From NCBI GenBank assembly GCA_036867785.1, contig CP145413.1, positions 1,178,001-1,242,000 on the forward strand: a stretch of DNA of 64,000 nt, in the 5' to 3' direction. Within the stretch, counting starts at the first letter, position 1, and every line of letters starts with the position of its first letter. The stretch is from Plasmodiophora brassicae (Eukaryota). Positions 39,483 to 64,000 of the stretch are shown here, piece after piece. Made by a program: the position numbers and the translations under genes. The notes below the pieces were generated by a model that searched no databases, was not told the origin of the DNA, and saw only the letters and a list, made by a program, of their open reading frames with translations.

Positions 39483-40013
39483 GATGGCGGTCGGTCAACA
39501 ACAAGGTCGACGCCGGACAACATCGGGCAGATTCTGTTTGGGGCCGCTCGCGCTGTTCTCTGGTCGTAGAACTGTTCCTTCAACAGCTCCCCGGGTGACG
39601 CTCTTCAGCGTCCTGAATCGTCACCTGTTGATCTTGAGCATCTTTGTCTCGATGCTGGGTGGCGTAGCGACGATGCCGAAAGAACAGACAGTCGTCCCGA
39701 ATGCGGCGTCCATGACCGGCTCGCATGACGTATCCGGCAAGACATCGCGTCAGATTGGCCCGGCTGTGCAGAGGGGTGAACTATGTGAGCTGGGGCAGCT
39801 GGACCACGTTGATGTTCATATTCCCAGGCCCCGTCCAGGAAACCGACTCTCGTCTGCATTCGAAGGCGCCGCTGGGTGTTCAACTATAGTTATTGGGCTG
39901 CTTCTCCCGTCTCCGAACGATTCTTCCTCGGTTTTACTGATTACGACTCCCTCGTTAGTGTCATATGTCACGTCCGTCGACAAGGCACCGCGAACGCGGC
40001 TAACGGTGATCGA

Positions 40014-47207: not shown

Positions 47208-49256
47208 TCAGTGTGTGACGTTGTATTTGTAGCCAACGTTGCGTTTGAATCCGAGCCTGGCCGCTAGCTGGTCCGCTTGGGGCGGGCCGCGCGATCCGAA
47301 CCGATACGGGATCGGCGGGATGCGGTCCCGTTCCAGGCGGGCCAGCGTAGGCGTGAAGATCGACCACGCTGCCAGTAATTCGTCGTCGCGAACGAACAGG
47401 CTGCGGTCGCCGCGAACGACATCGAGCTGTTACAATACACTAAGACGCATGCCTGCCAAACGATGCCCCAGGTCCTACAATCAGTCGTTCGTAGGCGTCG
47501 GGCAGGCCGGCCCGTATATGGTCCTGAGCACATTGTCGTCAGCTGTACCGAAAACCCTTTGAAACGTCCACCGAGCGAGCTCACGAATCGCTTCTTGTAC
47601 GTCAAATCCAGCTCGGTGTGGTGGAGTTTCTCGAACGTCAACCCTGGCTCCTTCGTGTTCATCTTCATGTAAATCGCCTCGTCTGGCTGGACGCGAACGA
47701 CGAGCTCGTTCGGGGCAGCCTCCATATGGTGATATAGGTCACCGGGCGGCTTACGGAATTGGATCCTGATTTCAGTCTTGTTCGCATCCAGGGCTTTTCC
47801 ACATCTACCACGCGAGCATGATTAGATATCCTGCTGAGACGTCATCTGCGTGAAACGACGTACTTCAGAATGAAAGGAACGCCGTCCCAGCGGTTGTTCT
47901 TGATGAACACCACCGCCATTGCGTACGTGGGGGTTAGCGATTCGGGTGGCACACCCGGGTCGTCCAAATAGCCTGGTGTTCCTCCATGACCGGTATACTG
48001 TCCGACGACAAGGTTGTCCAACGTTACTGGAGCGATGCAACGCAGAACTTTGACCTGTCATACGCTCAGCTGTAGCCCCAATAATAATTACTGAGCGAAC
48101 GACGGCAGCCCACCTTCTCGTTGCGGACGTCTTCGGCGTTTAACGACACAGGCTGTTCCATTGCCACCAGCGAGAGAATCTGTGTCAGGTGGTTTTGCAT
48201 GACTGAAACCGTTTGTCAGTCGCTCCGTGTTTACATGGGCCGAAAACGGTCTGGTTACGGACCGTCACGAATTATGCCGAACTTGTCGAAATATCCACCG
48301 CGTCCAGCCGTCCCAATGTTCTCTTTGAATGTGATCATGACGAGCTCGATATGATCCCTGTTCCAAACAGGCTCGAATATGGAGTTCGCAAACCGCAACG
48401 TTGATAGGTTCTGGACCATCTCCTTCCCTGAAGGGAGAGTCAAGCGTCCGAGAGAATCGAAAATGACACCCGTGTGCATACCTAAGTAGTGGTCTATGCG
48501 AAACAGGTGCTCTTCAGTGAAGTACTGTCTCAGGGAGGCGCCCAACTTGGCCGCAGACGCAAAGTCGGACCCGAACGGTTTCTCCACGACGATACGATTC
48601 CAGCCCGTTGTGCTCATGCACGACAGGCGAATGTTGCGAGCACTGGTAACAAACACGTTTGGCGGGATCGCGAAGTAAAACAGGCGATTCGCATGTCTGA
48701 AGCCATGCTCCAGCTTCGAACAGAATTCAGAGAGCTCCGTGAACGCAGACGCATCGTCATAACTGCGAAGGATGTTAAAGATGACCCAGCGTAACGATGT
48801 ATGCTACGCGTACGATCCCCTCTGGTACGTGCACCGGGCGAGGAACTCTTGTTGGTCTGCTTCGGGCACTCTCTTGCTTGTGATATGGGACCGGAAATCT
48901 GCAGCAGAGATCGAAGTCCGAGCGTAACCGATAACGTCCACGTTGCTGGGGAGTAACTGGACGGCACAATAGTCATTCTCCGACACAATCTCGGATTGCA
49001 TCACGGTCGATACCTTTGCATTGTAGAGGGCGAGTAGCGCCGGGTACGTTTTCTTCTTGGCAAGATCGCCGCTGGCCCCAATGACGATAATCGACAGGTG
49101 CGCATCGTCACGCGGGGCGTCAGCCTCCTGGCCCGACCCGGCGGCCATGTCCGACCCCGTACCCTGGCTGTACAGGATCCTCTTCAGGTCATCGTTCTCG
49201 CGGCGCAGGCGCTCCAGCTCGCCGCGCAGGTCGCTGTCGTCACCGTCCCCGGCCAT
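47208..49256 (-). CDS. G6PD: Glucose-6-phosphate 1-dehydrogenase, multi-exon
   Basis: [66 protein letters not shown]; the exact 3' end is uncertain. Confidence 0.96.
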
Positions 49257-49509
49257 TGCAGTATGTGTGAAAGCACGCTCGGACGAGCTGCACGCTGACA
49301 CGTTTGACGCGCCGCTCGGTCGAACTGCACCCTCTGACTGCGTGGGCGCCTCTAGAATGCGCCCATAACCATCTTCCAGAACGTTCTCAACCCACCGAGA
49401 CGCAGGCGACAGACCGTATTGCAGACCGGTGTGGCGCACCGGTCTACCATGCCCTGTCACGAACCGTAGGCCGGTATACCTAAAATATAATTATGATTGT
49501 GTATAGTTT

Positions 49510-52500
49510 TCACGTGTCGACTGATGGCTTGATGACGGCGAGGATCTTGTCCTTCATGACATGGCGCGATGAGTATTCGGGAAGATCGAGCCGGAATTCG
49601 CGCGCGTAGACGGTGATATCGCAGGAGTCGGGATCGGCGCTGGCAGGCGTGCAGATGGATAGCCTGGCTGTCGGGTGATCTTGGATCACAGAGAAGGGAT
49701 ATGGAGAAATCAAGCTGAAGAACCTGAAGACAACGGCCCGTGTTTAGCGTAGTGTGTTAACCTCATCGCATAGCAACCGTACCCTTTCTTGTTCTCCGGT
49801 GATAGCTTCTTGAATACAGACCAAAACAACGATACGTGACGAGTGGATTCGGAACAGCCGTCGTATGCTGCCCGCGATTCAAGCAGGTCGACGTCAATGT
49901 GCGCAGGTCCACAAACCTAAGGGCCAGAGTGAGAAGGGAGACGGAAGACCTGTTTCGTCTGAGAATACCGTCTGTTGAAACTGAAGCCAGGTGAACACTT
50001 GCATGACGCCTAGCGGCACTATCGACCCAAGGCCGTCCCGGATAGCCTGAATTTGTTTCTCACCACCAGACGACGGAGGTTGGTCGACACGAGTGAGGTC
50101 CTGCCACAAGCATGGAGGGAACCTGAAATTCATGGTGTGCCCGGTGCGAATCGACATGCCCATGAGCATTCCCTGCAGCCGGACCCCTTGAGCCAGACAC
50201 GACGCAGGCAACGCGAGCGGTCAAACCAGAAAATTGAACATGGCCAAATGGTGTTGTTCGGTTGCAGAGCGGCAAGGAACAAGGCAGTCTGACGCAGGTG
50301 GCCTCCAGCAATTATCCGCCGTGTCTGCCCAACGTTTATCACAAAAGCGCCTGGCAGACGAACTAGACCTTACCTGGTTCGAACAGCGACAGCAGAGGCG
50401 ACTTCAGTTCGTTGCAGATACGGTCGAGAACAATCCTGTACAAGCGTTCTTGATTATCCCGCCCGCATTCGTCGACGACGCACGACCACGCTCGTGAACC
50501 GCGCGCAACATGGAACGCCTGGCGTAACGATCAGGATGCTCAAGATCGCTTACCAAATTGATTACGAAGGTGTACCTTCGCGTCCTTGCTATATAGTGCA
50601 TGGAACAGCTGCAGAAAAACGGATTGGGACCGTTTCTTGAACTCAGCTGCCAATTCTAAGCGGACTTCAGGTACGGCGCTGGTAGGTGTTACTGACGACT
50701 GCAAGGCAGTAGATAGCAACTACACACAACAAGGTATCAGGGTGACGAACACAATGGTAATCTGTAGGGAGACAGTTACCTCATTCTTGACTGAGGCAAA
50801 GATCAGCTCTTTGCAGGAGATGATTGCGCGGACCATGGGAGATTTGCCACACATTTCGGTGAAGTCAACAACTGAACCAGGTTTATCGCAAGGTGAGTTG
50901 AATACGAAACAATATGCAATGATGCACTGACATGGGCAAGCTCCCAGCAAGGTCCTGTTGAAGCTGTGCAAAAGATGAACGCGGTGTCGTAGGTCGCTGA
51001 TGTCAACGCCGTTTAGCGATTGGAACACGGTAAAATCAAATGGGGACGGCTCAAAAGTCAGGCACTCAGCGTCAAGAGCGTCGTCTCCGATCGCAGAACC
51101 TGTGAAAAGTCGTTAAGAAAATGTGGCTGTTGCATAAGATAGGACCGGTACATCCTTACATTCGCGGTCTATGACAACGACGATATCGGAATCGATCTGG
51201 TAAGAAAAGGGACATACACGATGAGCCGCATCGACGTCATCCATCCAGTGCGGTCTTGAAGGATGACGAAATTTCATTGGCGAATGGTGAACAAACCAGT
51301 GCATGTGATATATCGACTGCAACAGTCCCGTAAACCACGGTGGTGGGGAGTCATCTGTAGGCGGCTTGGCGATACGGATTGCACAGACAGCCGTGCGCTT
51401 GCGACACATTGATACCGCCACTTTGACAGGGAACGCGACGTCTTCGAAGGTGGCAATCTGATGATCGTCATTTAAGACGAACGATACTGTTCCAGTATCT
51501 GCATTGGCATGCAGGGTGACGGAGTCTCCTTCTGCAACACGTGACGACGTTTGGAATGTCGGACGACTGTTGTTGGCATCATTACAAATTCCTATACCGC
51601 CTCCGGCAATGTATCCCCAGCCGCCTGTTCCAAATGAGCGCGGATATGAAACCTGAAGAAACATTCGCCACGCCTACCTTGAGACCCGCCGATTACAGAC
51701 TGTTCCACGTTGCATTTGAAGGCTTCGGGGACAAGGCCAATAATAAGGTCGGCTGACAGACGTCCATCCCCGAGTGGAACTCGGCACGGCTTGCAGAGCC
51801 GAACGATTTTGAATACGATTGTTTCACACCCATTGGACACGACGTGACTGGAACAGACTGTAATCCAGCGCTCTGGCCCAATCTTCACCAGCTTTCCATC
51901 ATTCCAAACTTTGACATCCGACAAGAAGCCGTCGGTCACCCAATGCAGATGTGATGACAAAGCCTGTGTCAGCAAACATTTGTTTAGGTCCAACGCTAAC
52001 TACATGGCAAGCGTTAGGTTGACCGGTCGGATTGGCTGGCACGGCCCGATCGGAGGGAGAATTGTGACTCGACATCCGACTGACGTCATGCAGACAGCCA
52101 GTTGCACAGAAGGCGACAAGTTCGTGAATGCCGTTCCGAAGGATTCTCCTGTCATTTCCCACTGTTATTGGGTATACTGAACCGCGGAGGTAAGCAGCCC
52201 CGACCATTTAGGGAGAAGTCGACAGTTGATGAATCACAGTTCAAGTTAACCGTAACGATGTCCCCAGCGGTCGTAGGCTTTCCGTAGTTTTGGCTCATAC
52301 CCTGATGGTACTTGAAGCCAGTCCCGCATATATAGCCCCAACCGCCTTTTGTGCCTCCAATACAACGAGACCCGGATTGGTTGATCTGCGACTAGACATC
52401 GGTATTGATGCAACAGCCATGCATTGCGGGGACGTTCACCTTAAATGTTGGAGGGACTACACCGACGACGATTTTCCATCCATTTGTAGACGGCGGATCC

Positions 52501-55500
52501 ACGTCGATTCTCACATGCAACTGACATGTACCGCTTCGGAAGACTTGCTTGGACTTCACCACACGCCAATTGCAAGATGCACCCGTCTATTGATAGACGG
52601 TCAAGCGAAATGGGTTTTAAAGACGCTCGTATTACCTTCGTAGCTGAAAGAAATTCGTCTGCCGATTCGCCTGCGAGCTCAATGTCAGCAAGGTCAGCGT
52701 TCGACCATGACGCGAATGATGAAGGTTCTGTTTCAGAATCGCTTTCCGATTCATATGATAAGACTCCTAAAGAGCCTGTATCGAACGTGTCAGCGTCAAA
52801 GACTGCTATGCAAGACGGTCAGAGCATACAGTTGTTTGCAAGGTCGGCCGAGATGCACCGCTTTGAAGAAGCGCGTGCAGCGTCATACAAGTTCTCCACT
52901 GGATAAACGTTTGTCTCACAGCCTTGTCCAGAACCTAATCACGTGAGTGAGCCCAAAGGAGACCTATCGAAGAGATCAAACTGACCTCCTCGGGTCGAGG
53001 ACTGATAGCAATAGACTGCCAGGTTGTACTCCACCAAAGCCATTAGCAACGGTGAGGGACTAAGGCTTTTACTTGTGTGGCCGTTCTTGATACTGTCCAT
53101 CAAGTGAACGGAAGAAGTGTCAGGCTCATTAATAACGCCTATCTCTACAAGACGAGAGAGAAGGCGGATCAGACGAATTCTGTTTGGTGCTGACGTCGTC
53201 GCAATGCAATGGAAAATCATGTTGATAATCTGTGGCAACAAATGAATTGGTAACGACGTTTTCGATGGTGGCAAGCTTGAAAGACCTGGTTTCCAAAAAT
53301 GTGTCCCCGAGCAATAGCTGTAAGATGAGGATGGCGCATCACAACGCCAATCAGACTGGACATTAGTGAGATTAATTGCTGGAGGAAAACATCGCTCCGT
53401 GGCCAAGGCTCGGTACACGCCTGGTAGCATAGGAACAAGATTTCCTGCACCTAAGATGCAGTTAGAAGATGGCACTGTCATTAGAATCAAGACGAAGCTT
53501 ACCAAAGAATGGGATACGGGCAACAACCCAGGTTGTACGTCGCTACCACATGACCACTCTGCAGTCACCAGGCTTCGTATGAATTTGTCAACAACAGCGG
53601 GCCCTTCCTCAACAGTCGATGCAAGTTCAAGAAAGGCACCGAACGAGTGGGATCCGCCAAGGTCGGACAGTGTCAAGCTAGTTGACCAAGACGTTGCGTT
53701 CTGCGTCATCGACATAATGCAACGAAGGGCATAGTAAGAGGTAAGGCGAGTAGTTGCTGAGATAATGTCAACTAAAGAAGCCTGCGACAGGTCGCTACTC
53801 TCAGAGTCCACAGAACAGGGTTGGAACCCGGAAGCTACAGACGCCTTAACAGACAATGGCATGGCATTGTTTGATGGCGGATTATCGCACCCAATGATCT
53901 GGGCCCAAACTCGAGGCTGAAGCTGGCGACCAACATGCACCTGCAAACCGAGCAACCGTTCTATTGAGGATCGAACAGAGTCGCCGGTCTGAAATAGAGC
54001 TGTCATGCACATTTCGACAGGGTACCCAATATGTGCCAAGTGCTGAGCAGAGCGACGCCGTTCTTCGGTTGCATCATCTGCTAGAAGCGTGCAGCGATTG
54101 TTGATGATCCAGTCAGAGGCACGTCTGCGATTCAGGTCGCAGGCTTGAAGGGCTCGAAGGCACCAGTGAGATGGGTAACCCATGAGAAGAAGCGATGACG
54201 CTATCGTTTTGAGAGATCGTCCATCGGTCAGAGGACCTTTAGCGAATGAGGACAATTCACGAACTGATGACAGAGGAAGTGCATAATCGCGAACCTGCAG
54301 GCCGGCAAACCCAACAGGGACTGAACAGAATTCGGGAGACGGATCAGCAAAGAGCGAGAAGAAATGCTGGATGGCCATGTCCGCGATAGGAATTTGGTGC
54401 TCTGAAGCCCGAAGTACGACGTGCCCATCAACGTGAATGATGACATCGTTTCTGATATCCAGGTCGACGACAATGACTATTCTAGAACCTTTACCAGGCG
54501 TTAAACGTCTTCCGGTGCCGAAGCTGTTCTTGAAGCCAAACTGTCCGTTTGAATTCACAAAGATGTCTGCAGGTCCGGAACCCTCTGATGACGATCGGAA
54601 GATTGCTTGTTTCGAATTTGGCATTGTTGGGAGAAGGATGTCAAGAATAACCGAGTATTGAGTGAGCCGTTGCATTCCATCTTCTGATGCAAGCCCGACT
54701 GCCTGGGGAATTTTCAAATGTTGACCTGACCAAAGCATAGCAACGTGCCGTATCTGCAAATTGGATACGTTAGAGCGTAATAAGGTTACAACTGCCAAGG
54801 ACTTACTTCAAATGCATCTTTGCGTTTGATACCAATATTGCGTAGATTCCAGGCAGGCTCGGATGGAACAACTTGAATTTGAGGATTCAGGTTACCACCT
54901 TTGATACCAAACAGCTTCGTGTGTTGGGAATGTTTTGCGTCATCTTTAAGGTCGCCTTCAACAAATGATAGACCGCTTCCGAATAGATTCGCGACGTGGT
55001 CTTCGGACAGTGCAAAGTCCCAGTACGCGAGATCGCGGATATCACCTTCGAGAAGTGTACTAGCGGCGACGTTCGTAGGCCAGATATCGTCAAGGGATGT
55101 AATTGTATCCACCTGAAAACGCGTAAATGCAACGTCCATGAGAACGATCACTGCCAAATGTTTACCTTAATGCAGCGAATACCGTCTACATATACAGACA
55201 TTTGACGACCGGAAACGATAATGCAGAGGCAATGCCACTCGCAGCAACTGATGGCATTGGAAGCACAGAACGCATGCTCGTGCGATTCGTTGTTGTCAAT
55301 AACGATGTTCAAGCTAAGCTTGCAACTGTCATGGGCACCATCTGCAAGGGAGACGTACACATCAAAGAGACGGGGCCCGTCGCAATACAGCTGGAGAAGC
55401 TTTGCAGTACCAAATGATTCCAGTGTCGGGCAGAAACTCACTGCGACTGTCAGAGAGCGCGGCGCACTCGTGTTTGACCATGACAATGGGAAACAGACTC

Positions 55501-58500
55501 TGACGTCACGTCGAACTCGAAACGGGGACTGCTCTGTCTTCAGCACCTTCCCAGCGCCAGGGGATTCATAAACCTGGATTGTACCAGCACAAACGCCGCA
55601 TAAATCGGCAACACGATCATTGACAACTTCGACATTATGTCCGACGAGGAAACAGCTTCTCGGATACGGCGGAAGTGGTGAAAACGCGCTGTTGTTGCCG
55701 CCAAAGACATATGGATGAGAAGGGCAGTGAGGAAACCGCGATGATGAAATAAGGAAATTGCATTTCTGACCGCAGGCGACAGTTTGAAATATGTATCTGC
55801 CAGCACAGGACTGGATACGTTTGGGGGTTGTTCGGAGAGCATTGTCCTCGTGGCCAAGATGACTGCCAGCGCTGCCCCACGTCCAAACCTCGCCTTTCTC
55901 GGTAACGGCACATGTGTGGTCCTGACTGCCGTCCACCGAGACCACACGCTCACTTTCGAGTTCGTGTGCAATTCGATACGGAAGAAACTCATGCTGGGAG
56001 TTCTGTCCATTGCCTAAGGAGCCCGCATTGTTCCCACCCCAGCAGTAGACGCGACCGCGTTTGGATAAAGCAATGGAATGGTCCCAGCCACATGCAATCT
56101 GAACGATGACCTCCTTGGCAAGAGCCTCAATGAGCTTTGGAATGAGCTGTTTTTCGTTCGTGCCATGACCGCAAACAGGTCTCCGGAGCTCGTAACCACC
56201 GCCCCAACTAAATACCCGACCGTCGTTGAAAAGGCACAAAGAATGATCCCATCCACCAGTGATTTGCACAATGCGCGACATTGTAACAGGCAGCGTTACA
56301 GGAACTGGACATTTCTGCATGGTGGTTGACCCAATGCCCAGTTGACCACACTATAAACCGACATGAATGCTAAATTTAATACGTGCAAGCAACATTAATG
56401 ATACAGTTACCTGATTCTTTCCCCAGGCAAACAGGTCACCCGTCGACGCGACAGCAAATGCATGATAACCACCAGCTCCAATTAAATCGATATGAACCTT
56501 GTCTAACCCGCCTGCCGTGACAGCAACAGGGGTTCGGCGGTCGGTTACCGCACCGTCCCCGATTTGCCCAGTATTTCCTTGGCCCCAAGCCCATACTTTC
56601 CCGGAAACATCGAGGGCCAAAGAGAAGGCGTTACCAGCAGCGACTTGGACAATTTGCATCGACGTCAATGTCTCAACGACCCTGGGTTGCCTCTGTAGCA
56701 CAGCGTCGCCATGACCAAGACGTCCATGGTCCCCATTGCCAAAGGTCATTACTTTTCCGTCAACAGTGAGAACAATACAATGAGACCCAAATGCGGAGAC
56801 TTGGCGAATAGTGACTTTCGATATCGATGGAATAAGAGTAGGAGTAGATAAGGATGCCGTCGAATTCTGGCCAAGACGCCCAGAATCACCTTTGCCGAAG
56901 GAAAACATAAACCAAGGATCACAGCCATTTGTGCTTCCCATAACAGCTTGTCGGTTGTGCCCTTGTGATTCCCTTGAAAGCGGATCATTGCCATTAGCGC
57001 GAATCACAGGCACAGAAGGAGTTGTTGAAGTAGAATCCGACTTCACGACCGGGACCGACACGATAGTTCCATCAGCATCACGAAGCCAGCCGTATAGCTC
57101 GATGCCACCAAGAGCCAAACGCCAAGACCCGCTCGAATTAGGCCCAGTCATTGTTACCCGGAAGCACTGGAAAAACTCGGTAGACTCGACAATGAAGTTT
57201 GCCTCAGAGTTCTTCTCTTTAAGCGAAAGGTCGTCGGTGAAGGAGCGAATGCACACCCATTGTTGGTTATATGCAGCGCTTTCCGCAATAGCATCATCTG
57301 CTGCGCCTGGGACGCTGGGTGGAGCAGATCCCGTGTGCGGTCTCTGTCCCTCAAGTTTCCATGATCGAAGTGCAAGCTGGTCTGATTCCCTCCAATGTTT
57401 GAGAGTAAATGAGCTTAAACGAGCAGCCCTTGAAAGAAAATCGATGCAGATACGTTCATACGGAATAGATTCCGTGCAGAAAGATGCACCCTCGCAAGAC
57501 AATTCCGATAACGAACCGAGAAGAGAAGCCACAGGTGCCGACGAGGGAGCAACTGATGTCGATGACAATTTGACTTCATTAAGATGGTGGGGATTAGTCC
57601 AAGGCATTGTACCGTATCGGGTTCCTAGACAATGGAGAATCCCAAAACTGCCCCGAAAAGTTGCACTGATCTCGTTGTCAGACGACGTTTCGTGAACGAT
57701 ATGATCCATGGAAGGACTAAATCTGATGGGGGTTCGGATTATCCCAGCCCTCCGTTTGGAAGACATTGATGATCTCTTAAATACGGCAGTTGGGAGAGGC
57801 CCTGGTGTCGATCTGGACTGAGTTGCTGATCTGACGCTCAAGGCGCACGGTTCACTGGAGTGGAATGTCTGCCGCGACGGTGTTATGTTTTCGTGCGCGA
57901 CAGGGGCATCAAGACTGCTATGTGGCCGAAGCAACTCCGAGATTCTAGACACAACTCGTCGTTCGTATTCGCGAGAAGGCATTGCATGCTTGCAACCTGT
58001 TAGGTCTTCGGGAACAGCAACTGTCATAAGCTTTTGAAGCACTTTCTTTTCTGAAGCAACCTTAGACCACGAGTCGGCGGCTAGCAGATTGGAAAGGCCG
58101 AGGAGAGCCTGACAGCGCAAGGTTTCCAACAAAAGAGACGCATCACGTGGGCCAGGTGATGAACTCCTTTGCGAGCATTGCATAATTCCCGTAAACTTGA
58201 AGAGTTCTTCAAGAATTGCACCAGCAAATGGAAGAAGAGATAGGTGAGGCAGAGGAACGTTATCGATTGCTCTCAAGGACGATACACTTTGAAAGACAGC
58301 AAACGATTTCGTTGCTCCAGAGTCCGTTGTGACAATAATGGTCCCATCACTCTCCACAGCAACGACAGTCCCTACCGCTACAAGTCAGCACGCGGCGGTT
58401 ACCAGGACAACTGACACCTTACCAAGCAATGGGATTTCACGACCGTCCAGAATTTCGCAACGACACCCTTCGTATAACGGGCGGCTTAATCTGCCTCCAA

Positions 58501-61500
58501 TCGACAAGAAAACCCCATTGACGCGTCGGAACAGTGACGCGCTTACGTCATCTAGGAGAAGCTGTCCCGCCTGATCCCATGGAGTGCTGACGTCATCCTT
58601 AACCATCGAAGCCAGTTTGGTTAATAGTATCGGAACGTCGTTTTGAAGTATAGACACAATCGAGTGAGCCACCGGGCACGACCATTTCGGAGACGACAGC
58701 AAGGTACGAATTACGTCCACAGCTTCGCAACCCAGAACAGTTAGCGAAGGATCAGGTTGCCCATCAGGGTTGACGCTACTATCCAACATGGAATTCTGTC
58801 CACAAATGTCCCACAAACGGTCTAAAGTATCACCAAGATTAGGTATTGACGAAGAGCGCCGTTCACGGATTGCATCGACGTTCGCCGCGTCAAAAGCGAT
58901 CATTCGCCGATACAGTCGAAGGGATAAAACACGCGTCACCATTGACGAAGATGAGAAATGTTGTGCTAGTACTTGCAGGAAGCCAAACCGCCACAGTTGA
59001 GAGGTAAATTCAGCCTGGTTGCTGCAGCGAAGCAATGCCGACAGCTTTTCGTTGACAAATAAGTCAATCTCTAATTGTGACAACGATGGACTGCATTGAC
59101 GATAACTCCCCCGATATCCTACATCAGCTTTCTGGTGGATGTGCCTATAAACGCGTAAGCGGTTACTCTTCCTTTCAAAGTACCCGTGATACGATACCAG
59201 TTCACTGGCGCATTCAATAACCGCGCTAGCTTTGCTCGAGTATCCCAATCCGTCCCCGGCACTTTTCCAGAGTTGATTCCGGAAGATGATTCTCCTGCGA
59301 ATTCCCCATGAAGCATAGTGATCCGCGTGTCCATAGCAGTGAACGAAGCTGCTAATCTCACAGGCCCAGACAAGTTGCGAAATGCAATTCCTTGCGAGAC
59401 GCCGTTGCGAAGAAATTCGATTGTGCGCATGTCAAAATCCAAGATAATACCAATGACATCACCTGAGGAGAACTGATCACCATATTTCTCGGCGGAAGAA
59501 GAGTGGTACTTCGAGCCAGTTGCAGCAACATATCCCCAACCACCCTGCGTTCCACCAACACAACGACTGACAGAATAGTTGGTCTCGAATGATGTCGGCA
59601 CAACGCCGATTACGATTTTCCAAGTGTTCGGCGTTTCACCGCTGTTGTCAATCCGAACTTGTAGTTTGCACACGCCAGAGAGGTAAGACTTTGCGGAACG
59701 AACGACTTGCCAGTTTTGCGAATCGGATTGATTACAGACGGAGTCAGGACGCGAACGATCAGACCCAATAAATTCGATGTCTTGAGAGCCGTCAACTTCC
59801 CAATAGTCGGAGCCCGACAAACTAGACGAGCTGGCAGAACTGTGCACTGCATCGTGAATAACTGGATTAAAAGGGGCGTTTCCGGATATGGGCAAGCCAG
59901 GGGTCAGACGGTCGTCAAGCACACTTTGCGGATGACATAACGTTCCGTAGATCTCAAACCCACTCAGGGCCAAGTACCTACAGAGAGTTTGTTCAATGAC
60001 TTACGTGAAAATAACACTTACTATACTGTACCAAGTGTTATTCGAATTTGGACCAGTCATTAAAATGCGGAACATGCTATAGAAATCAGCGCACTCGAGA
60101 GGCCAAGAAAATGACTGTCCGGAAGCTTGTAAAGAGTCGTCATTGTCATGTACTCGAATCCAGGTCCACGACACTCCATCAGAAGAGCCCTCAAGCCGCC
60201 AACTGCGAAGCGCTTCAACGTTGTAACTTGAGTAGTGGCGGAGCGTGTAATAAGTTGGCCGAATAAGGCGACCAAGAAAGTCGACAATAAACCACTGGTT
60301 CTCTGCCGCAGCAGAAACACACCGAACGGCTGTGCGACCAACTATTGCTGTCGCAGGAACAGAGGTTGCCGCGAGACTCGCGTAACGTATCTGAGGGTTC
60401 ATGGGTATCAGGCAATACCAACCAGGACAAACAGTCAACTAACCTTAACGGCTCCGGTTTCTGCAGGGTTCTTGAACGTGACGTTTGAAGCTCGGGGACC
60501 GGTGATATTGTTGGTGCCCAGCGCAAACACAACTCCGTTCTCATCAAAGTCACTTTCATAGCAGAACTCTGTAAACACCGAACGTGATGATGAAGTATTA
60601 TGTGCACCCGTTTGCCCATTATAAGACATGGCAGATGGAGGCGAGCCACAAGCTCTGCACGCATTCCATTGGATACCATTTATAAACGTGCACTGTACAA
60701 GTAGGACCTCGAATCAGAGTTCAATCTGGCCACTGACGAATATCTTACCGTGTGACATTGCCAAACATAAGCGTCAGGAGCACTGCCCGTCTTATCCATC
60801 ATCAAGTCATTCCCGTTATTTCTGGCGATCTCTCGGTGGTACTGGAAAGCATTCTTAATGTCGCCGGAAGCAGCGTTTACTTCGAAGGACCGCATAACGC
60901 AAAGAAGGTTGACCTGCTCGGCGACCTTTCCGACCAGGATCCCCATCGAACTGCTGTCAACCTGCCCTAGCCCAATGTCGATAGCAGAAGTAGGCTTTGT
61001 TTGCGTACAGGAAACATAAAGAAGCACGCGGAACAAAGACCAAGCGCAGAAGCGAACGTTCCAAGGCATCAACCGTAAACGCCCTTCTCGAAGCAGGTCA
61101 CTTAAACCTTTCGGGACACCCAAAATTCCTGCATTACAAGCTGGATAGGCCAAGAGAGGCGACAAGGAGTCCACTATCCCAGTTCGTAGTAGGTGATCCA
61201 GGTCCCGACCACAATATGGAAACGTGCAGAGATCCATTAACTTAAGATATTGCTGAGCGGTTTTACGAGGGCGACCAACAAGTTGCGATATCACCGAAAA
61301 GAAGCAGTCACGGACTGCACCCCGCATTTTGATTTCGCATCCATCTAGCCCATAGAGGTAGTGTGCAGAACTATTCTGTTCAACAACAGTGGCTAAACAA
61401 ATTGCAGATGAAGGTTTCATCGACGAAGATTCCGCCGAAGCGATGTTGTCACCTGCTTCAGAAGTTGACACATCTACCGGTTGTCTGAGAGACAGAACCT

Positions 61501-64000
61501 CTGGCACATCAGAAGGAGATTCGTTGGGCGCAGGGCGATGAGGGAAACCGGGTATTCCAGTCGGCAATAGCAATGGAAAGTTTTCAAGAGTCAACAGTGC
61601 CGGAACGGTGTCAGCGTCATGTGCAGCGCATGCACGCGCGAGATCGGCTAATGTCTGGGGAAACCTTCTGGATTGCCAGCCGGCAACGGATCGGCTAAGT
61701 ATCGCTCGAATTGCGTCAGAAGGGTGTCTGCTCGATGATCTTCCGAGACGGGAAATGGCAGATGAATCTGGTGACTCCCCAGACGGTACAATATCACTTG
61801 TAGGACACCGAAAACGAACCTGACGAAGTACATCCGTAACCAGATCATCCGTGTGCAGTTCCGATATCATATTCGAGATGACGTGCAGACCCAAAAGGCG
61901 ATTGAATCCTCTCACATGACGAACGCAGAGACACTCATGAACAGCGCAGAGGTCATTTTCCAAGTCGAAGACGAACGCAGAGACCTCATTAAAGCATCGT
62001 ATAACAACAGCGTCCCAAGACGATACAATGCTGCTTGACTTGAAAGGAGCATAACCTTCAGGGATCTCCTTTTCACGGAAAGAACCATTTTCCCGTGTAA
62101 ACACGCAATTCTTTGGCGATGGATGAACCCTTAAGAGAAAGCGTAGCCGTTCTTTGCAGCGGGCGATTACAGAGCCAGCGTCCGAACCGGCATCGCACTG
62201 AGCAGCGAACTTCGAGATTTGTTCAGAAACCCTGCTTGAGTGACGAGAAATATCATGCAGGAGGTCGACTATTGTACCCGTTGAACCATGCACTTCAGAC
62301 AAACGTAGATGGAGAACACCAGTGTCCGATGCCAGAAGCTCGCAATCGTTGAAATCTTTTCGCAACATATCAGTAATTCCGCAATGATGCAAAGCAACTG
62401 CAAAGCACAGTCGGTCGAGATCGCTAGGAAGATTGAGGCCGCTGCGACCAACTAATTTTAAGACCTGCTGTTCAACAAACTCGAACTCCTGGTCCAGCAG
62501 ACTGCAGGCGTCTTCGCCGTTTGAATTTGTGGCCAGGTCATAGATAACTTGAGATATTTCAGGGATAGAATGGGCGAAATCCTCGGACGATATCGATAGA
62601 GACGTTCTCAGACCACCGAATAAAAGGCCTGACAGCCATTGACAGTTCGCGTCCTCTGCCGTCGTTTTTATCTTCGTTCCTATAAGAGTATCACCGCACA
62701 CGCTAAGAAGATTTGCCATAGTCTTGCTTAGGTCCAGAAACCAGGCCAATGGCTTCGTTTCGACTGAAGCGGTCGCCGTGACAGAGACACCCCACCCGGA
62801 GGTAGCCGGTGAAGCATCCGAACTATCGCCAGTTTTAACATGCACGATTACCGTATCGCCAGAGACCTTCAGCGGTTCTGAAGGCCACAGAGAAGCGGCT
62901 GCTGCAGAATCCACCGCAAACTGTGGTTGAACATTTGGCCCCCATATCCTTTCGGTAACTGGGACAAAAGCGTTATGACTGGATGTAAGGAGCTGCACAA
63001 AATCATCGCTCGAAGAAGTGCAAGATCGCGAGTCAAACGCTAGAGACAAAGACGACGCATATGGGATCGATAAACGAAACTGGCGGTCCATGTTCCGCGG
63101 CAGTGGATGCTCGGTCTCAACGACCCTTTTCTCAGAGACAATGGAGACGGAATGCAAACAACCCTGGCCGTCAAGAAAAGAGCATATCCTGTCAGCGGCG
63201 CGAAGACACCCAGCCAGGACATGGATGATACACGAAGAGAGTTTCGGCAGGTTGACATGAATCAACGCCAAGAGGCCACAACAGAGCGGTCGGACAAGCT
63301 GCCCGATCAAAGTTTGTTGCAATCCGGAGAAACGATGGAGATAAAATGACTGAGGGTCGGTTCCTGAGAACTGCTCCAGCTCAAGCAGAACCTTAACAAG
63401 GACAGATTCCGCACTCCTGAAGGCCAATTCAGCATACTCGCAAACGATGCCCAACTCGGGCAATGGATGGTCTCCATATCGGTAACAGATAGCCGCATCG
63501 TAATGCCGTTTTCCCGAAAGCCCTAACAGAGCCTTCTGCAAATTCTGGAGAATTCGCAAAGCCTCTCGTTGCCCAGGCTGAGCAGACGTACGGCACGTCT
63601 GCTCCGCCTTGGCATCCAACGATACCGCCGACGTTACGCATAACGATAAGAGGCTAGAGACGACCTTCCTTAAAGACTCGCGTTCATTTCGCGTGTCCTC
63701 TATAAGAGCAATAGCGGCATGGACGGACGAAAACCGCGAGAGAAGCATGTTCAGCAAATTGTTCTCAGGATGGGCCGAGTCTGGCAAATCTTTCGCATAT
63801 TGCCCCCGTGCATAATTAGCAACACGCTTGTCGAGCAAGTCTGTCAGGTAGACTATTTGCTCGTGCGCCGATGAACAGAAAAACTGCAATCCAATGGCAA
63901 AGGCCTGCGTAGCCTCATCTGCGATTACGCTCAACGAACTCTTTCCGGCGCTGTCAGCCGAGCGGTCAACATGACGTAGAACCTGTTTCCGCAACCGTAT
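49510..64000 (-). CDS. Giant HERC/HECTD-like multidomain protein (CUB-like, two SUN/F5-8-like, SPRY, RCC1 repeats, LamG-like, UBA, degenerate HECT); 5' end outside the window
   Basis: ETEHP..LAFDSR..WP..LKVSGD..WG; FCYESDFDENGV..YTLRH..ALRSWRLEGS..LALSGFEIYG; SPRY (GDVIGIILDFD..IEFLRNG); RCC1 (FGKGDSGRLG, GNGDHGRLGHGD, WGQGNTGQIG); UBA (LLMGYPSHWCLRAL); HECT-like C-terminus. Confidence 0.85.

Follow-up and report, generated by a model that had tools for sequence, protein, structure and literature searches.

HECT ligases work by a relay in which ubiquitin is passed as a thioester from an E2 to the catalytic Cys of the HECT domain. The large HERC proteins of animals, HERC1 and HERC2, combine an RCC1-like domain with a C-terminal HECT domain in chains of several thousand residues, and their HECT domain is canonical and catalytic. 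Human G2E3 reportedly has a C-terminal HECT-like domain that is not typical in its action, the activity being carried by other domains; it is said to be a protein of about 700 residues with PHD/RING-like domains and thus of another architecture. In the current analysis we describe a giant HERC-like gene on the minus strand of a 64,000-nucleotide (nt) stretch of the genome of the plant-parasitic protist Plasmodiophora brassicae (assembly GCA_036867785.1, contig CP145413.1, positions 1,178,001 to 1,242,000), which is referred to here as the window. Its HECT domain is probably a rare 'pseudo-HECT'.

According to a review on pseudoenzymes, the HECT family appears to be without dead members, which is taken there to signal that its members cannot do without catalysis (PMC10211241). 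The same review describes the UEV or pseudo-E2 proteins, such as the UEV domains of Mms2 and BRCC45, in which a dead fold of the ubiquitin cascade is reused for binding or scaffolding (PMC10211241). These have another fold and act at another step of the cascade, and the likeness to the present protein is one of analogy and not of homology. Among protists, HECT13 and HECT14 of Leishmania mexicana are HECT-like, lack the catalytic Cys and are termed 'possible pseudo-HECTs', being fragments of 60-69 residues from a domain search that were set aside by the authors (PMC7647121). Unlike these fragments, the protein encoded in the window keeps most of the two-lobed domain, is supported by transcripts and has canonical relatives with which it can be compared. 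No description of this pseudo-HECT case was found in the literature searched, supplementary files excepted.

We consider it reasonably likely, on the evidence of the sequence, that the gene encodes a giant HERC protein of at least 4374 residues in which a fold-preserving, non-catalytic remnant of a HECT domain is carried on a constrained scaffold. By its sequence the protein is a member of the HERC family by ancestry and not by the definition of the enzyme, the HECT domain being present by descent but degenerate. The RCC1-like propeller, which together with HECT marks the HERC family, is present in the model, and two features of the HECT enzyme, the Cys and the E2-docking small subdomain, are missing. 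Membership in the group of giant protist proteins typified by P0076 is seen in colinear similarity as well as in a shared RCC1 clade.

The Pfam HECT family (PF00632) is matched by the three last stop-to-stop frames of the gene with E-values of 1.4e-6, 9.3e-5 and 0.058, and the matches skip along the profile from positions 40-71 to 187-232 and then to 277-298. On single exons the E-values are 1.2e-5 (25.6 bits) and 3e-5 (24.2 bits), which barely exceed the cut-off of 23.9 bits. When the first exon of 1084 residues was searched against longer proteins (1898-5000 residues), only the distant P0001, a canonical giant HECT protein of 4909 residues, was returned. The spliced C-terminus aligns to P0001 by phmmer in two blocks, residues 79-264 with P0001 75-270 (E-value 4e-14) and residues 275-412 with P0001 356-494 (E-value 8e-22). 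A search with the HECT region of P0001 gave 553 giant HECT proteins, and the 120 listed among them were used as comparators in a MAFFT alignment with the model.

The last coding exon reads ...PDSCDITVYAREFRLDLPEYSSRHVMKDKILAVIKPSVDT, followed by the stop codon TGA (49510-49512). The Arg of the YAREF motif in this exon, encoded by CGC at 49602-49600, is placed by phmmer under the catalytic Cys of P0001 without gaps, the stretch from VYAREF to LPEYSS of the model lying over SHTCFF to LPRYS. In the MAFFT alignment the catalytic column holds Cys in 118 of the 120 comparators and Arg in the model, the other two comparators being affected by a gap in the gene model (P0069) and by truncation (P0078). 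Two positions ahead of the catalytic column, Tyr takes the place of the conserved His (VYAR where the comparators have SHTC), the WGRSRLP loop has become SPYPFS and the GE..DD.GG..R motif has become DECGRDNQERLYR. Conservation reaches 90% or more in 59 columns, of which 27 are unchanged in the model, 8 fall in a gap and 24 carry another residue; in the comparators a median of 98% of these columns is kept, with a minimum of 55%. Where the model has a Cys seven residues upstream of the Arg, the nine comparators inspected there have Tyr or Phe. The original prediction, which had placed Arg at the position of the catalytic Cys and had regarded the upstream Cys as an unlikely substitute, is borne out in both respects.

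As a separate observation on the comparators, the deposited model of P0069 (Saprolegnia parasitica) omits the CFF..LP.YS stretch, ...LPVAHT being joined directly to EELLA..., which looks like a mis-set intron and not like a loss of the Cys.

The E2-binding subdomain had also been predicted to be missing, and this too was found. In the model, 13 residues separate the anchors ...CLWQ and EKQIQ..., where the 120 comparators have 60-168 with a median of 88, the spacing lying within the 80s for 113 of them. The gap between the two phmmer blocks is 10 residues in the model against 85 in P0001. Alignment to the Pfam HECT profile gives the same picture: the 68-residue exon at 49969-50172 covers profile positions 44-71 and the next exon starts at 187, so that the profile is skipped from 71 to 187 across the excision. 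The structure predicted for the HECT domain of P0001 from an alignment of 11 relatives (mean predicted local distance difference test, pLDDT, 85.4; predicted template modelling score, pTM, 0.79) has HECTD3 (PDB 9r85) as its best solved match in Foldseek (E-value 1.9e-26, 34% identity). The HECT domain of HECTD3 (PDB 9r85, 9r8t) is thus the closest solved fold to the family comparator, and unlike the window protein it has the small subdomain and the Cys and is active as a ligase, having been caught in the form of a ubiquitin conjugate. The segment absent from the window protein corresponds to residues 149-234 of the P0001 model, which comprise helices at 155-161, 163-173, 175-178, 182-188 and 219-231 and strands at 194-196 and 202-204, the latter being the fifth and sixth strands of the domain. 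The N-lobe's small subdomain is made up of helices 6-8 and strands 5-6 and hosts the E2-binding site (PMC3077247). Because the missing piece contains the fifth and sixth strands together with their flanking helices, it is identified in the predicted model as the E2-binding small subdomain, matched by the order of elements and not by superposition.

No coding sequence for the small subdomain was detected when the segments of nine relatives were compared by tblastn with the whole window (best E-value 0.21). A weak match that recurred in this search at 39536-39589 on the plus strand is a chance WGRSR-like string.

The gene model draws on public sequencing runs. Of the sampled words, a share of 0.98 or more was present in each of 14 DNA runs, some of which are labelled as plant metagenome, and six runs with a word share of about 0.70 were guessed to be RNA, none of them being annotated as such. 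Four of the latter, each from a different study, were aligned to 48200-64000, and all four do hold transcripts, with spliced contigs whose CT..AC joints correspond to GT..AG on the minus strand. The HERC-like gene accounts for 12 of the 15 joints listed out of 29; these lie from 49721 to 52829, and each is common to the four runs. Eight more introns are uniquely set by contig arithmetic together with the open frame, and the introns of the model, 25 in number, measure 49-60 nt. With the best intron set, obtained from joints, contig arithmetic and the open frame, the 26 exons inside the window join into a single open frame of 4374 codons, and RNA contigs continue upstream past the end of the window for about 1.6 kb. 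The frame needs this modelled intron set, in which the intron at 50519-50575 and those within 52830-53500 are inferred. About four short introns lie within the 671 nt of 52830-53500 on the minus strand, an area spanned by a stop-free frame of 622 codons. From 14 to 143 frame-keeping sets match the possible totals there without a unique solution, the best-looking one adding up to 216 nt against 219 expected, and the sequence of the approximately 150 residues encoded in this area is uncertain. Given the modelled introns, the earlier statement that the rest of this gene of more than 14 kb keeps long open frames is upheld.

The RNA contigs of the four studies agree with the window in the region of interest. 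The joints 49914/49967 and 50171/50226 flank the 68-residue exon in all four runs, and no joint inside this exon is present among the 15 of 29 joints listed for them. The exon is contiguous in the spliced contigs and no exon for the small subdomain is seen in them. Over the HECT region the list of differences from the window is empty for all four runs; that particular contigs span the Arg codon is deduced from contig arithmetic and bin depth, the evidence being at the level of contigs. The sole difference listed over the 15.8 kb in the four runs is at 63506-63507, where run X16 has AA and the window CC, and from this the diversity among the sampled isolates would be very low.

Comparison of the model with the 120 proteins by BLAST has identified five full-length colinear relatives, P0076, P0079, P0072, P0084 and P0070, of 5274-6599 residues, each with 13-15 colinear or repeat-domain segments. 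A sixth, the RanBP2-type protein P0109 of Spongospora subterranea, is colinear too, at lower identity. Together with the short introns and the plant-associated runs, this relative would fit a plasmodiophorid-like protist as the source. The regions held in common are the N-terminal region, the RanBP2 finger, the F5/8C-like domain, SPRY, RCC1, the UBA region, the pre-HECT region and HECT, and the RanBP2-type finger pattern of the model occurs at the colinear place in all six relatives. On the RCC1 tree the model and the six form one clade (support 94/99) that is internally unresolved. Fly HERC2 (P0022) also aligns with the model in both RCC1 and HECT; the animal HERC1 and HERC2 proteins differ in lying outside this clade and in having other accessory domains.

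All six colinear relatives have a canonical HECT domain with the Cys, the His and the full small subdomain, and it is in this domain that the model departs from them. In the F5/8C-like domain the model is 50-59% identical to the relatives, with no match to P0109, where P0076 is 51-66% identical to the other five, likewise with no match to P0109. In RCC1 the model is 41-44% identical to its six relatives, and P0076 is 42-58% identical to the other five. The corresponding values are 30-37% against 57-77% in the HECT N-lobe and 28-34% against 58-78% in the HECT C-lobe, so that the HECT domains of the relatives are 57-78% identical mutually and 28-37% identical to the model. The end branch of the model is 4.28 on the HECT tree, where the median is 0.17, and 0.85 on the RCC1 tree, where the median is 0.5. 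The pre-HECT region (50576..51099) is 21-25% identical to three relatives and has no match to the other three. Judged from these region identities and branch lengths, the rest of the protein is under the constraint typical of the family, with drastic change limited to the C-terminal end, the pre-HECT region included.

With no E2-docking subdomain, no Cys and no His, the thioester relay should be unable to run, as follows from the mechanism of HECT ligases. The N-lobe's large subdomain and the C-lobe are still encoded with their hydrophobic-core pattern kept, and the E2-docking small subdomain has been excised, with a Pro/Ser/Gly linker of 12 residues in its place. Such a HECT-like domain is predicted neither to dock a charged E2 nor to form a thioester with ubiquitin. 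The protein may in that case function independently of HECT catalysis, its intact RCC1, SPRY, F5/8C-like, UBA and zinc-finger modules making it a scaffold or adaptor, and the remnant may serve as a structural module or as a module for non-covalent binding, possibly of ubiquitin, by analogy with the UEV proteins. One such role could be that of a non-covalent reader of ubiquitin acting together with the UBA and the zinc finger of the protein. We put forward tentatively the further proposal that this is a genuine selected and folded HECT pseudoenzyme, devoid of the catalytic Cys and blind to E2, which has taken on a role in binding or regulation within the giant HERC protein of a plant-parasitic protist.

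Several observations speak for maintenance of the remnant. The HECT-like part has 264 codons open over six exons, where the other five frames have 5-13 stops each, and its five introns, four of which are listed joints, are all frame-preserving. The model is hydrophobic in 74 of the 83 columns in which at least 85% of the comparators are hydrophobic, with only 39 identical to the consensus and 35 kept by replacement and not by identity; it is hydrophobic in 17 of 104 columns conserved as polar (Fisher p 4e-25). The kept columns are spread over the large N-lobe part (43/47) and the C-lobe (31/36). A decaying relic, in which the ligase function was lost and a functionless HECT leftover is tolerated while selection keeps the other domains, is a less likely account to which we nevertheless give real weight. 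It would explain why the extreme divergence is specific to HECT, why nearly all functional motifs are gone, why the pre-HECT region has diverged too, why the C-terminal tail is shorter than that of the relatives, and why a search of 1.84 billion representatives detected no relative of the last exon, a spurious match aside. So much neutral change should however have produced stops and frameshifts, and instead the 264 codons and five introns stay in frame, the hydrophobic columns are kept, 35 of them by replacement, and the small subdomain has been removed cleanly, a short flexible linker bridging the site. Several further points tell against the fold-preserving remnant. The hydrophobic pattern was tested on a MAFFT alignment, and the aligner has a bias of its own towards pairing hydrophobic residues. 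Strongly relaxed constraint would likewise give an end branch as long as 4.28 changes per site. The G+C content at third codon positions is 0.636 in the HECT-like codons against 0.491 in the rest of the gene (0.42-0.564 in windows of 264 codons elsewhere in it, the introns having 0.467 G+C), which is unexplained. No close orthologue with this C-terminus was found in the protein, representative and metagenome searches, and the finding rests on one lineage. The domain can be translated only if the intron 50519-50575, itself deduced from contig arithmetic and homology, is spliced out, and the contigs suggest that spliced and intron-retained forms coexist. The original prediction of a maintained, catalytically dead scaffold or decoy ligase, in which 'scaffold or decoy' is a putative role, stands as to the loss of the catalytic apparatus (Cys, His, motifs and small subdomain); for the word 'maintained' the support is indirect and comes from expression, splicing, the open codons, the hydrophobic pattern and a rest of the protein that is conserved as in the relatives.

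That intron carries a different explanation, which we regard as improbable, namely that it is retained in the main transcript, that the protein ends in ...RNQFGKRS immediately upstream of the HECT-like domain and that the HECT-like exons are mostly 3' untranslated sequence. The unspliced exon 50374-50719 has two in-frame TGA codons just before the start of HECT (50540-50542 and 50531-50533), the 15 joints listed out of 29 do not include the junction 50518/50576, and two contigs of run X15 end at 50520 and 50575, the last bases common to the spliced and unspliced forms; the coexistence of both forms is suggested because such ends match the behaviour of an assembler at a bubble. Against this, removal of the 57-nt GT..AG intron, which is of typical size for the gene, deletes both stops and keeps the frame, the alignment of the relatives continues uninterrupted across the junction, the 264 codons downstream are open and HECT-like, and the intron total of 993 nt in run X16 (48957 to 53500) can be achieved with the intron spliced out. 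A still active ligase of a non-canonical kind, using another Cys such as the one seven residues upstream and docking the E2 elsewhere in the protein, is very unlikely. Cys residues do remain in the C-lobe (PDSCD, LSICT, VCGP), and two reviews caution that some annotated pseudoenzymes have proved active (PMC10211241, PMC12037411), but the upstream Cys stands in a column of Tyr or Phe, and the His, the motifs of the active-site loop and the entire E2-binding subdomain are lost. Least probable of all is an artefact of assembly or annotation that hides a gene with a normal HECT domain. No evidence in its favour was found; the sampled words recur in the 14 DNA runs, the RNA contigs of four studies bear out the sequence of the window as well as the splicing and list no difference in the region, and the tblastn comparison gave nothing resembling a coding sequence for the small subdomain anywhere in the window.

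The product of the HERC-like gene itself was not among the returns of any protein search made. When the stop-to-stop frame of 108 residues was compared with longer proteins (190-2000 residues) for relatives of this C-terminus, none of the 146 candidates scored. The sole match of the last exon (70 residues) among the 1.84 billion representatives is P0002; as this is a bacterial protein of TPR repeats and the match is broken into 10 short stretches, it is read as spurious. The sole metagenome locus returned for the 68-residue exon, L001, has 66% G+C with 23 residues matched and is read as chance, as are the PDB matches of this exon, which are designed armadillo-repeat proteins only.

If the reading of a fold-preserving, non-catalytic remnant is true, it shows that a HECT fold may be put to other use once catalysis is lost, and the window encodes a natural 'minimal' HECT, made of the large N-lobe subdomain and the C-lobe, in which those parts could be studied alone. 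Counts of HECT genes would then overstate the ligase repertoire of such parasites.

The domain organisation of the protein, the coordinates of which are collected in the table below, comprises in this order a helical N-terminus, a RanBP2-type zinc finger, an F5/8C-like domain, SPRY, a second F5/8C-like domain, the RCC1 propeller, UBA, two SPRY domains and HECT. The finger has a TF dipeptide, which we take to resemble that of the ubiquitin-binding NZF fingers.

Table. Features of the giant HERC-like gene, in window positions
Feature	Position	Strand	Remarks
Giant HERC-like gene	49510..64000	-	5'-incomplete in window; 26 exons, 4374 codons inside
RanBP2-type zinc-finger pattern WQCHTCTFINGIQWNACRAC	60648..60763	-	Regular expression on spliced model, residue 1080; split by intron 60693-60748
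F5/8 type C-like (galactose-binding-like) domain	60034..60390	-	Pfam E-value 4e-4, under cut-off
SPRY domain	59338..59658	-	Pfam E-value 1.1e-17
Second F5/8C-like copy	in exon 56411-58371	-	
RCC1-like propeller	55735..56908	-	Intron 56351-56410 inside; WD40_RLD E-values 1e-37, 2.7e-44; RCC1 E-values 6e-32, 3e-38
UBA-like domain	54097..54204	-	Pfam UBA_7 E-value 1.8e-6
Possible second UBA-like domain	just downstream of the UBA-like domain 54097..54204	-	By eye only
SPRY (part)	52206..52385	-	Pfam E-value 8.5e-7
Weak SPRY match	51407..51574	-	Pfam E-value 0.0033, under curated cut-off
Pre-HECT region	50576..51099	-	Diverged
Inferred GT..AG intron, 57 nt	50519..50575	-	Contig arithmetic and homology
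Degenerate HECT N-lobe start (AFHVARGSRAWSCVVDECGRDNQERLYR...)	50227..50518	-	Exons 50374-50518 and 50227-50324
68-residue exon with both flanks of the excised small subdomain	49969..50172	-	Pfam HECT E-value 1.2e-5; contiguous in spliced contigs
12-residue Pro/Ser/Gly-rich linker TRVDQPPSSGGE	50059..50094	-	About 88 residues at that place in relatives
C-lobe start exon (VCGPAHIDVDLL...LFW...)	49783..49916	-	Pfam HECT profile 187-232, E-value 3e-5; joints in four runs
Last exon, HECT C-lobe end	49510..49723	-	Arg codon 49600-49602; stop TGA 49510-49512
Introns from listed joints, fixed by GT..AG	49724-49782, 49917-49968, 50173-50226, 50325-50373	-	
Introns from listed joints, fixed by GT..AG	50720-50779, 51100-51159, 51625-51677, 51964-52023	-	
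Introns from listed joints, fixed by GT..AG	52149-52204, 52386-52439, 52587-52635, 52776-52829	-	

The 3' end of the transcript lies about 10 nt past the stop codon, at 49499-49512, as placed by contig arithmetic with a loose end of run X19 at 49501. Directly downstream on the same strand (48255-49490, minus) is a gene similar to glucose-6-phosphate dehydrogenase with an N-terminal extension, identified by eye from its translation, which has three short introns with joints present in all four RNA runs. A single contig of run X16 spans both the HERC-like gene and this neighbour, which suggests that the two transcription units abut or overlap.

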